Of a stretch of 21,300 bases of DNA, positions 17,331-20,283 are shown piece by piece (positions within the stretch are counted from its first letter, which is position 1; every line of letters starts with the position of its first letter). Both the position numbers and the translations under genes were made by a program. Under the pieces are notes generated by a model. That model ran no database searches, was not told the origin of the DNA, and was given only the letters and a program-made list of their open reading frames with translations. Origin of the DNA: Rotaria sp. (Eukaryota); assembly GCA_905250055.1 (NCBI GenBank), contig CAJNOF010000289.1, positions 125,844 through 147,143 of the forward strand. The letters are read 5' to 3'.

Positions 17331-17580
17331 ATGGCAGATTCATACGATGACAAGGGCAAAGACACCGACGATTCATCTTCGCTTCGGTTTATACACACCT
17401 GTTGGCCTTTGTCGACGAGTCATGATTTGCCCACTTCGAAGATAATTCTAGGTAATGAAAAGGAACGCTTGACAGAATCAAATTTTCTTAAGTTACTTTC
17501 GAAATCAGAAGGCCAACCAATGCCAATGTCTACTGTTGATAAGAAACTGAAAAAAAAGAAGATGAAAGAAAGAGGTACAG
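17331..17580 (+). CDS. HSP70 substrate-binding-domain-like gene, exon 1 (low-complexity acidic and basic N-terminus).
   Basis: First in-frame ATG at 17331. Translation is MADSYDDKGKDTDDSSSLRFIHTCWPLSTSHDLPTSKIILGNEKERLTESNFLKLLSKSEGQPMPMSTVDKKLKKKKMKERGT. GTAAGA donor. Confidence 0.55.
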
Positions 17581-17627
17581 GTAAGAACGCTATTAGAATC
17601 AAGTTCATTTCATTATCTCCGTTATAG

Positions 17628-17706
17628 GATCAGTGCCTGCACCACCATCAGGGCCACTACTAGGACCGCCTCAACAACAACCAAAACCTAGCACCAAGAT
17701 GCCAAT
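17628..17706 (+). CDS. HSP70-SBD-like gene, exon 2 (Pro/Gln-rich).
   Basis: GSVPAPPSGPLLGPPQQQPKPSTKMP. 47-nt intron, phases consistent. Confidence 0.55.
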
Positions 17707-17757
17707 GTATGTATTTTCCGGACTCTGTGTCATGTAGTCATTGATGTTTTCTGTTAG

Positions 17758-17852
17758 GATGGCAGGTTTGACATTACCATGCAATCAGCCATCAGTACAA
17801 ATATCTGAAGCTGCAGCATCGTCATCTTGTATCGATGATCTCAAGACTACAA
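17758..17852 (+). CDS. HSP70-SBD-like gene, exon 3.
   Basis: MMAGLTLPCNQPSVQISEAAASSSCIDDLKTT. GTAAGA donor. Confidence 0.55.
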
Positions 17853-18129
17853 GTAAGATTTGAATTTCCGCCTATTAATGTTCATGGTAATTCCTAACTT
17901 CAACTAGATTTGAGCTATAATACTTCGACTTCTTGCGCAAATAATAGGTTGTTCTTATACGATCAAGAGTTTCGAATGTTTTACACCTATTTCCGAGGAG
18001 GAAGCAGTAATTTATGAGTTTGATGAATTTGATTAAATTTGAGTGAGTATAGTAAGCTAAATTCAAGTCACTGAGACTCACTGGAGTTAACGTTAAACAT
18101 TCTACGTTCTGATTTGATGTCCATTTTAG

Positions 18130-18333
18130 GTCTTGAATTGGCAGCACCATTCGATTCATCTGATCATGTAATTGATCCTTCTGCATTGACTTCTCTTTCT
18201 TTACCTGAACCACGATCACCAGACATATCATATCGAACAATATCACTATCAAAAGAAGCGGCAAAATTTGCATTCCCCGATAGTGGCAACTGTATGCAAT
18301 CTCCAATAGCATCAAAACCGAAGCCAAGTGTTA
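18130..18333 (+). CDS. HSP70-SBD-like gene, exon 4.
   Basis: SLELAAPFDSSDHVIDPSALTSLSLPEPRSPDISYRTISLSKEAAKFAFPDSGNCMQSPIASKPKPSV. GTAAGT donor. Confidence 0.6.
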
Positions 18334-18390
18334 GTAAGTTAGAATCATACAAATTTCTCGATTATTTTAATTAATGATCTTTGAACATAG

Positions 18391-18661
18391 AAACACCTTC
18401 ACGAGTTTTGTCAAAGAGTGGTAAACATGGTAGCATGCGAGTACTTGTCAGTGAACCACAAAGTTCAGACGATGATACAATGTATGAAATACTACCAATG
18501 GATTCGACATATTTCTCTCCAGATGAAACTGTACGATGTGATGAGATGTTTAACAAAATACGTGTGCCAATGGAAAAACGAGAAGATGATATGAGAAAGT
18601 TTACAAGTGAAAGCGCAAAATCAAAATCCACGATTCATAAAAGGGCAAGACAATCAGAAAT
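18391..18661 (+). CDS. HSP70-SBD-like gene, exon 5.
   Basis: KTPSRVLSKSGKHGSMRVLVSEPQSSDDDTMYEILPMDSTYFSPDETVRCDEMFNKIRVPMEKREDDMRKFTSESAKSKSTIHKRARQSE. GTAAGT donor. Confidence 0.6.
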
Positions 18662-18753
18662 GTAAGTTTTGACAAAGGTGTGCGATGATTAATTATTAAT
18701 CGTCATTCTCGATCGATGGCTTTGTTTTTAATGAGAATTAAATGAAAATTTAG

Positions 18754-19000
18754 GTCTCGATCAAGAATGACACATAGTTCAACATCCGACGCATCTGTCT
18801 GTAATCTACTTCTTCTGGATGTCTGCCCACTTAGTCTAGGCATCGAAGATATTCACGGTAACATGCATACACTCATTCGTCGTAATACAATTATTCCAAC
18901 GCGAACTGAACTTTATCCAATATTCACAAATGCTTATGCCTATCAGACAACAGCTACCATTCGCATATTTGAAGGTGAACATAATTTCACAAAATACAAT
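18754..19000 (+). CDS. HSP70-SBD-like gene, exon 6 (first half of the HSP70 SBD-beta).
   Basis: ..[72 protein letters not shown] parallels HSP70 [63 protein letters not shown]. Confidence 0.8.
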
Positions 19001-19053
19001 GTACGTAGTGTTCTAACTTCATAAATTTTATTTTCTAGCCTTCTCTATTGTAG

Positions 19054-19222
19054 ACATTATTGGGCGAGTTTAGTCTTTCCGGCCTAACAAGCAACTTCGC
19101 TCCTCAGACACTCGAAATAGCTATTCGTATGGATATCGATGCTAATGGGATACTTCGTGTCGATGCTGAAGAAGCGCGTTCGGGCGTGAAAGCTTCATTT
19201 ACTCTTGAGTCCAATCAGCAAA
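19054..19222 (+). CDS. HSP70-SBD-like gene, exon 7 (second half of SBD-beta).
   Basis: [56 protein letters not shown] parallels [55 protein letters not shown]. Confidence 0.75.
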
Positions 19223-19280
19223 GTTCTACAATTTCTTAGATGTTTCATATCATCATTAAATGCCGTTTATATTTATCTAG

Positions 19281-19352
19281 GATTGAACAAAGATGATATT
19301 GAGCGACATATTACCTATGTAGAAAGTGATACAAATTTTGCAGCTAAATCTG
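19281..19352 (+). CDS. HSP70-SBD-like gene, exon 8 (start of the lid region).
   Basis: [24 protein letters not shown] parallels HSP70 [22 protein letters not shown]. 58-nt intron, GTTAGT donor. Confidence 0.7.
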
Positions 19353-19400
19353 GTTAGTGTGAAAAAAGGATAAATGATATTCAATTATTGTTCTTTTGTA

Positions 19401-20283
19401 GTTTATGATCGAAAACCCAATGATCCATTGTACTTAGTTCGTACTATGTCATCTGTTCATAGTTCGTTTTTCCACTTTTTCTGTCTTTTCTTAGCTCGAT
19501 GGTCAAATTACACCCGTTACACGTAACTTTTCAGCTGAATTTGTTACCTCATTCGGTAATTTGTCCTTTGTTGTTGTTTGAAAGATATACTGCAATAGTA
19601 TATGAATTCAGGTCAAATAACTGGTGCTCCACTTCTCATTAAACTGAAAAATGTTCGATCTTCAAGAACAATGATTGAAAAGCTCATCAAACTTCAATCC
19701 GAGGTAATATCATTTTCAAAGTTTATTATCGATTCATTGCTTTGCATGTGATTCGAATATAGGACGGTTCATTTACGTTGAATAAAGATTTAGCTGATAT
19801 ACTTCATGTCAATGTTGATACTTTCAATGGTCTAGAACAATATTTATGCGAACAAGGTTTTAAATCACTCGGTAAGATCGTATGATTCATTACAGAGACA
19901 TGAACTTTAATTTTCGTAGCTTTGAACATACAAAACGAAATTGTTCGTTTAATCGGTACAGGCGTCATTCTTCTTTGGCTCGTTCTTCAAATACAAGATT
20001 TACAACAAAATACGTGTCAATTTTTATTTAACATTGAACACATCAAAGTGAATTTTTTTTCCGATCTTTTCAATTTACATCCTACTCTCTCTATGTTGCT
20101 AAGGTTTATCTCTACAACCATTTACCTACTAACATGAGCGAACAAATTAACAAAGCGATCGAATTCTATCAACAAACAAGTCAACGTAATGGTATCTATT
20201 GTAAACAATTAGAATTGAGCGATTCATCGTGGGACATGTTTATTCAACGTATAGTTATCGGCATCGATCATGTCAATAACTAA
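19401..20283 (+). CDS. HSP70-SBD-like gene, 3' exons. Boundaries are tentative: 19401-19435, 19494-19554, 19612-19703, 19763-19871, 19920-~20097, and ~20133-20283, with TAA at 20281-20283.
   Basis: A chain of in-phase exons separated by 48-59-nt GT-AG introns (LDGQITPVTRNFSAEFVTSF / GQITGAPLLIKLKNVRSSRTMIEKLIKLQSE / DGSFTLNKDLADILHVNVDTFNGLEQYLCEQGFKSL / ...EQINKAIEFYQQTSQRNGIYCKQLELSDSSWDMFIQRIVIGIDHVNN*). A TACTAAC branch point precedes the last acceptor. Confidence 0.4.

Follow-up and report, generated by a model that had tools for sequence, protein, structure and literature searches.

We analysed a stretch of 21,300 nucleotides from Rotaria sp. (assembly GCA_905250055.1, contig CAJNOF010000289.1, positions 125,844 to 147,143 of the forward strand), hereafter called the window and numbered from its first letter. 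Along its forward strand lies a chain of exons that encodes the domain set of PARP4 together with a substrate-binding domain (SBD) of HSP70 type and a fragment of calmodulin (CaM). The PARP4 domain set shares one strand with the SBD and the CaM exons, and the locus presents a full PARP4 architecture plus two foreign inserts. We therefore read the window as holding the bdelloid-rotifer (Rotaria-like) orthologue of PARP4, expressed as one transcription unit, possibly alongside an isoform restricted to the tail, and we give this reading a probability of roughly 60%. The SBD and a C-terminal MVP-interaction (MINT) domain would form the 3' third of this gene, with the SBD placed between a long disordered linker and MINT. 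The initial annotation, which covered 17331-20283, had described an SBD-only gene with a disordered N-terminus. The SBD without an ATPase domain is indeed there, and the description was otherwise a partial view in which the PARP4 MINT domain downstream and the PARP4 domains upstream were missed.

The window is AT-rich and its introns are typically about 50-55 nt long. Using homology-guided junctions, we built an exon chain from 4744 to 20283 (+) that comprises 36 exons, all bounded by GT-AG introns, and encodes 2273 amino acids with no stop. Exons 1-18 (4744..11937, +) encode BRCT, PARP regulatory-like, PARP catalytic, VIT and vWA domains followed by a post-vWA helical region, as assigned by Pfam, phmmer and collinearity with the R. 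sordida model P0139; exon 18 ends in phase 0 at the donor 11938. In the 2273-residue product, Pfam matched BRCT (residues 13-87, at 21.4 bits with a cut-off of 21.3), PARP_reg, PARP (421-578), VIT (658-768), VWA (920-1074), EF-hands and HSP70, and the BRCT, PARP catalytic, VIT and vWA domains follow the order of PARP4. A phmmer search of the N-terminal 1455 residues against PDB placed human PARP4 at E 1.3e-184 over query residues 274-1276 and PARP1/2 at about 1e-17, which makes human PARP4 the nearest PDB relative of the product by a wide margin. The catalytic H-Y-E residues are present in the alignment with human PARP4. In addition, tblastn searches with bdelloid homologues gave same-strand matches at 10369-10605, 11698-11934 and 13241-13960.

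Human PARP4 (vPARP; PDB 9bw6, 9bw7 and 11jf) shows the same order of BRCT, PARP regulatory-like, PARP catalytic, VIT and vWA domains, a disordered linker and a C-terminal MINT domain. However, it has neither the HSP70 linker and SBD-beta nor the calmodulin fragment of 3.5 EF-hands, both of which are found in the rotifer gene, where the SBD is inserted about 65 residues ahead of MINT. The 3' third of the exon chain begins with exon 23 (17263..17580, +; 318 nt, phase 1 at both ends), which was delimited by multi-locus alignment and holds the ATG at 17331. Exons 24-27 (17628-17706, 17758-17852, 18130-18333 and 18391-18661, +) encode a low-complexity linker with many Ser, Pro, Asp and Lys residues, and exons 28-30 (18754-19000, 19054-19222 and 19281-19352, +) encode the HSP70-derived part. 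Exons 31-36 (19402-19436, 19495-19555, 19612-19703, 19763-19871, 19920-20047 and 20104-20283, +) encode a short spacer and then MINT, ending at the stop codon TAA (20281-20283). The low-complexity segment initially annotated upstream of the SBD exists, as a linker region inside the chain and not as a proven N-terminus. Likewise, the twelve GT-AG introns of 47-92 nt described for this part are present, but the total is 13, the additional intron being 277 nt long (17853-18129).

The segment at 18754-19352 (+) encodes the HSP70 interdomain linker, a complete SBD-beta and the first lid helix (helix A). SBD-beta and the start of the lid had been proposed for the same three exons, and all of the peptides quoted at that time, including PAPPSGPLLGPPQQQPKPSTK, were recovered at their coordinates in the frame translations and in the spliced model. 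In the 669-residue tail model, spliced from ATG 17331 to TAA 20283, PF00012 was the only Pfam family matched (E 9.8e-29, profile positions 379-516 of 599). BiP was the top phmmer match of the SBD in PDB (E 8e-30), with Hsc70/Hsp70 and DnaK close behind. Four full-length HSP70s aligned to the window at 18776-19218 alone, corresponding to approximately HSP70 residues 390-515, and there is therefore no nucleotide-binding domain (NBD), that is, no N-terminal actin-like ATPase domain, anywhere in the 21.3 kb; the Pfam match, too, is confined to profile positions 379-516. Lid helices B-E and the C-terminal EEVD/KDEL are absent as well, with the match ending after helix A and giving way to the spacer and MINT, and the C-terminus reads ..GIDHVNN. 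The peptide TNFAAKSVYDRKPNDP of the spacer (19330-19440, after helix A) bears a weak likeness to the HSP70 NBD motif TVFDAKRLIGR..NDP, which HMMER scored at 2.6 bits with an i-E of 1300, and we attribute it to chance.

The interdomain linker reads NLLLLDV, and this hydrophobic linker is joined to an SBD-beta with a peptide pocket. In the HMMER alignment to BiP, the equivalents (DnaK numbering) of I401, F426, A429, Q433 and I438 are kept, with M404 replaced by I and V436 by A, and a two-residue insertion lies between a conserved Pro and Phe ahead of the pocket strand. Compared with canonical HSP70s, especially BiP/GRP78 (PDB 6eob, 5e85 and 7a4u), the window protein is 42-48% identical over the linker, the SBD-beta sandwich and helix A, and the pocket and arch residues are mostly retained. 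Unlike them, it lacks the NBD, lid helices B-E and EEVD/KDEL, and its SBD sits inside an unrelated multidomain enzyme; with the NBD missing, the ATP-driven HSP70 cycle is therefore impossible. Cytosolic and endoplasmic reticulum HSP70s could not be separated by BLAST as the source of the SBD (43-48% identity), and phmmer against PDB gave BiP 107 bits and the others 95-99 bits. Among solved structures the fragment is thus nearest to BiP, which is suggestive of a BiP-like origin at the level of sequence similarity.

A structural model was made with AlphaFold 2 on the homologue P0003 with a 19-sequence alignment, of which the SBD part alone was usable, and Foldseek returned the SBDs of HSP70, BiP and DnaK as top matches for this low-confidence model. 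The best match was 7a4u, a lid-truncated BiP in a linker-bound oligomeric state; the mean predicted local distance difference test score of 45 denotes low confidence and tells against leaning on the model. To our knowledge, HSP70 SBDs are almost never detached from their ATPase, and we found no paper on an SBD-only HSP70. HSPA13/STCH and HSPA12 are truncated or atypical HSP70s that have likewise lost one half of the protein. They keep the ATPase and have lost or replaced the SBD, whereas the window presents the reverse, an SBD that was kept while the ATPase was lost, fused to another protein.

The approximately 170 C-terminal residues after the SBD match human PARP4 1575-1705, with phmmer E 3.5e-5 for the single sequence and E 4.4e-9 for a profile of 12 family members. 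Judged by this similarity, they constitute the PARP4 MINT (MVP-interaction) domain. The family PF26156 ('PARP4 MVP-ID C-terminal') is precomputed on homologues, and a local Pfam scan gave no PF26156 match on the window sequence itself. In the cryo-electron microscopy structure of the human vault (PMC12280208), MINT holds PARP4 in place close to the vault waist, between repeat domains of MVP. MVP genes are present in bdelloids (A. vaga). By analogy with human vaults, we infer that MINT may dock the window protein on the inner wall of the MVP shell. Two points speak against such docking. The PARP4-binding residues of MVP were reported to be vertebrate-only in the human study (PMC12280208), and the window MINT, homologous as it is to that of human PARP4, nonetheless differs at three of the four MVP-contact residues, keeping S1614 and replacing K1618 by N, Q1682 by R and R1689 by Q.

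Upstream of exon 23, four exons (13241-13337, 13399-13476, 13694-13835 and 13885-13964, +) were identified by tblastn with canonical CaM and encode CaM residues 2-132, being 88-98% identical to them exon by exon. The block is split over separate exons in a manner similar to calmodulin, but it lacks the first and last of these, and tblastn with canonical CaM found neither a CaM start (ATG) exon nor a last exon in the window. With the last exon missing, EF4 is therefore truncated, and position 12 of the EF1 loop, a Ca ligand, is changed from Glu to Ala; EF-hands are matched by Pfam in the spliced product. The block is accordingly not an autonomous CaM of about 149 residues with four functional EF-hands. 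It also differs from calmodulin in being in frame with the flanking PARP4 exons. It is entered in phase 0 and exited in phase 1, which fits exon 18 (phase 0) on one side and exon 23 (phase 1) on the other, and splicing exon 18 straight to 17263 would give an immediate stop. The same block occurs in R. sordida, in Silwood2 and, with the C-lobe only, in R. magnacalcarata. The A. vaga model FUN_024910 combines PARP, VIT, EF-hand and vWA, and because of this EF-hand the CaM insertion may predate Rotaria.

Whether the SBD and MINT belong to the same gene as the PARP catalytic part was examined from several sides, and it is probable that the SBD-bearing tail is not a small stand-alone gene. The initial annotation had started such a gene at ATG 17331, a start that our analysis does not support. 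In Silwood2 and R. magnacalcarata, two of the three orthologous Rotaria loci, AAG stands in its place, and in the window another ATG, out of frame, precedes it by 6 nt. ATG 17331 lies 68 nt into exon 23. All four Rotaria loci share the acceptor of this exon at 17262, and the 23 codons between this acceptor and the ATG are open in three Rotaria loci and homologous to coding sequence of A. steineri (P0006) and A. ricciae (P0011). A. ricciae has the intron at exon 23 in the same position and phase, and the donors 11938 and 13965 are conserved in the orthologous Rotaria loci.

The arrangement of other bdelloid loci agrees with a single unit. At an A. ricciae locus (L001), the post-vWA exons are joined to the SBD and MINT within 3.2 kb, and the homology reaches the contig end. 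At an A. steineri locus (L005), the region from BRCT to vWA is followed by the SBD and MINT on one strand within 8.7 kb, and the annotated split there leaves just 63 bp between the two parts. Public models spanning PARP to MINT are P0139 (R. sordida, 1974 amino acids), P0142 (R. socialis, 2121 amino acids, without CaM) and P0128 (Silwood2), the last of which uses the exact splice from the CaM block to 17263. In A. vaga, FUN_013713 and FUN_002086 are single models that each list Hsp70, PARP, VIT and vWA domains (PMC10809525 Table S8).

That the tail forms a gene of its own, or an isoform beside the full one, is distinctly less probable, and we consider it because tail-only loci exist in other Rotaria. 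In its most explicit form, such an arrangement would have arisen by gene fission in this Rotaria lineage, in which the CaM fragment and an insertion of several kb split PARP4 into an upstream gene ending ..READIDEG* and a tail gene (linker, SBD and MINT) starting at ATG 17331. The tail would then have its promoter in a conserved block at 17010-17262 or receive its 5' end by spliced-leader trans-splicing at 17262, and it would be much the same gene as first annotated with an unrecognised MINT added. Several observations count towards this fission and against a single transcription unit. The intron between the CaM exons and exon 23 would be 3298 nt long, a gap of 3.3 kb, in place of the typical ~55 nt, and it holds a 63-bp tandem repeat and a 2.5-kb segment missing in R. 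sordida. If unspliced, the last CaM exon would be followed directly by TAG and ATTAAA. A TATA-like, highly conserved block stands ahead of exon 23, also at a tail-only paralogue (L008). Two Rotaria loci (L002 and L008/9) have the tail without PARP, VIT or vWA for 8-10 kb upstream and keep this conserved block upstream of exon 23, and at L008 the first ATG after the acceptor is in frame. Other annotation runs split the locus at the gap between CaM and exon 23 (L003 and L004), and A. vaga FUN_024910 lists no Hsp70 domain. Transcripts were sought among Logan and other matches to the tail (P0173 and P0176), which proved to be intron-containing genomic contigs with no evidence of splicing.

Nevertheless, we regard the fission as rather unlikely. 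The start it requires, ATG 17331, differs between the loci and has an out-of-frame ATG ahead of it, and upstream of it the frame stays open with homology to coding sequence. No conserved start codon belongs to the CaM exons themselves, and their exit phase is exactly that needed by exon 23. The TAG after the last CaM exon is not conserved in R. magnacalcarata, where the donor GT is. Moreover, the CaM C-lobe, which in R. magnacalcarata is expressible solely together with the tail, appears to be under purifying selection in comparison with that locus (dN/dS, the ratio of nonsynonymous to synonymous substitution rates, of 0.17, from small counts). A single PARP4 gene running from BRCT to MINT thus remains our preferred reading of the window.

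The putative long introns of this gene are variable between lineages. The tandem repeat lies at 14154-14319 with 2.6 copies, and the segment absent in R. sordida corresponds to 14224-16741. Silwood2 is without 12065-13226, another of the large lineage-specific insertions or deletions in these introns. Against this background, the non-coding block at 17010..17262 (+), delimited by alignment of the Rotaria loci and ending at the exon-23 acceptor TTTTTAG, is 96, 93 and 87% identical to the three orthologous Rotaria loci and 78% identical to the paralogous tail-only locus L008 (7745-8001). At about 250 nt, it is more conserved than the neighbouring exons. Within it are TATATAT, AAGA|GTAATT as a possible donor and the Sm-like AATTTGG, and it is a candidate internal promoter or 5' untranslated region, or a candidate intronic control element. 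An Rfam search of the block gave no match at E<=1, and RNAalifold found no compensatory pairs in it, because there is too little variation. That the block might be the missing last CaM exon was ruled out by tblastn with canonical CaM. A second conserved intronic block, 17940-18068, with 85% identity to R. magnacalcarata, lies inside the 277-nt intron 17853-18129 and might represent a cassette exon or an element that acts in splicing. Beside it, 17853-17993 is 77% identical to L008.

We regard this as a real and conserved variant of PARP4, specific to bdelloids, that carries an HSP70 SBD within it and, in this lineage, also a calmodulin fragment. Between Rotaria species, the SBD and MINT have a dN/dS of 0.25-0.53 and the SBD of 0.25-0.48 (small counts), and the linker exons 24-27 evolve fast, with a dN/dS of about 0.8-1.2 and in-frame insertions and deletions. 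Among 19-20 family sequences from three genera (Rotaria, Adineta and Didymodactylos), 37 columns of the SBD show no variation, in contrast to linkers that cannot be aligned. All close homologues are bdelloid and belong to these three genera, and an exhaustive HMMER search with the family profile among 1.84 billion representatives found SBD and MINT together solely in bdelloids and unnamed fragments. High scorers from outside the bdelloids (Toxocara, Jatropha, Daucus and Striga) were tandem-duplicated HSP70 models rather than SBD-MINT proteins. A MINT profile searched against 5.8 billion proteins matched bdelloid or environmental fragments only.

The A. vaga genes FUN_013713 and FUN_002086 are expressed, with mean counts of 750-1300 (PMC10809525). 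At 2.5 h after X-rays, FUN_013713 rose by a log2 fold change of 4.5 (false discovery rate, FDR, 4e-94) and FUN_002086 by 1.8 (FDR 3.5e-28), and the A. vaga MVP genes were also X-ray-induced (PMC10809525). We therefore think it very improbable that the SBD exons are a decaying passenger, captured from an HSP70, or that the locus is a chimera of assembly or annotation. The SBD dN/dS is only moderately below 1 in close comparisons, and in the window copy of the CaM block EF1 has already become inactive, both as might be expected of a passenger. Yet the open reading frame is intact, the 37 SBD columns stayed invariant across three genera while the flanking linkers diverged beyond recognition, the locus is collinear in three other Rotaria assemblies, and the A. 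vaga homologues are expressed and induced. The initial view of a functional gene rather than a dead fragment is upheld by the intact frame, the conservation in Rotaria, Adineta and Didymodactylos and the SBD dN/dS.

Several further features of the family and of the locus were recorded. In several paralogues, those of Didymodactylos among them, the otherwise unalignable linker shares a short motif of the form (R)(F/Y/L)TDTR(A/S/C)DE, placed 50-100 residues ahead of the SBD. We regard this as a candidate linear motif; it is degenerate in the window, where LRFIHTCW (DNA ~17370-17420) and ETVRCDEM (~18520-18560) are found. A paralogous locus (L006 of Rotaria sp. Silwood2, 1-13969; L003, 6548-10283) has a tandem duplication, with VIT-vWA..SBD followed by VIT-vWA..SBD-MINT, and public models there are variously split or merged with neighbours. 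The model P0003 continues past the family C-terminus (..DMFIQ) into about 150 unrelated residues, which apparently belong to the gene next to it, and P0140 has been merged with an unrelated coiled-coil/PIN-like gene. Within the 1001-nt intron 10686-11686 of the window, an 80-nt inverted repeat with a 7-nt spacer and 90% complementarity occupies 11066-11232, resembling a palindrome of the miniature inverted-repeat transposable element type; L003 and L004 hold further copies or pieces of it, and the A. ricciae counterpart of the intron is about 50 nt long. Upstream of the PARP4-like gene, a chromodomain open reading frame (2773-3003, +; PF00385, E 7e-10) probably belongs to a separate gene.

HSP70 biochemistry predicts that an SBD without NBD and lid binds extended hydrophobic segments in a nucleotide-independent, fast-exchange manner, and HSP70 linkers are themselves established substrates of SBDs. 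An HSP70 fragment has probably been inserted between the disordered linker and MINT of PARP4 in bdelloids, and the CaM exons have probably been inserted upstream in this lineage. MINT would hold the protein on the inside of the MVP shell. The SBD, with no ATPase, no lid and a conserved pocket, would act as a nucleotide-independent, fast-exchanging binder of extended hydrophobic peptides. Unfolded clients, or the LLLLDV linkers of PARP4 molecules nearby, would in this way be kept beside the vault wall, where the PARP catalytic domain could reach them. The likely ligands would be unfolded clients, whether cargo or substrates of ADP-ribosylation, or the LLLLDV of neighbours, as in BiP oligomers. 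By analogy with human vaults and BiP, this peptide-tethering mechanism as a whole is possible, and we put it forward tentatively. Of the roles named in the initial annotation, a client-binding module is a reasonable reading of the sequence, but in a vault-PARP context, and nothing in our analysis supports a decoy or regulator of HSP70.

The SBD might also serve mainly for self-association, binding the LLLLDV linker of a neighbour and clustering PARP4 on the vault wall in place of binding foreign clients. Family members share the linker motif with (almost) no variation despite the lack of an NBD for it to dock into, the nearest structural match of the model is the oligomeric, linker-bound 7a4u, and the use of HSP70 linkers as SBD substrates is itself well established. 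However, the linker residues form the first SBD-beta strand contacts, and folding alone may therefore conserve them; the structure model is, moreover, of low confidence. We consider self-association as the main function unlikely.

In conclusion, our analysis places a client-binding domain next to the vault anchor of PARP4 throughout a stress-tolerant clade, with a CaM fragment added in one lineage. It also corrects a likely mis-annotation, as the public assemblies of Rotaria and A. steineri that we examined often break these loci into two or three 'unnamed' genes. The PARP4-SBD combination is known from database entries and one supplementary table; we found no discussion of it in a paper, and no paper with both 'PARP4' and 'bdelloid' in the searchable literature. 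Bdelloids are known for extreme tolerance of desiccation and radiation, and the function of vaults and the role of PARP4 within them are long-standing open questions. What we offer is a specific hypothesis, in which peptides or clients are captured in the interior of vaults. There is an outside chance that bdelloid vaults carry a MINT-tethered, ATP-independent clamp of HSP70 type which captures, shelters or ADP-ribosylates unfolded proteins during recovery from desiccation or radiation, and in the calmodulin-bearing lineage this clamp could be gated by Ca2+. If this were true, the long-enigmatic vault would gain a concrete, testable cargo-handling function.

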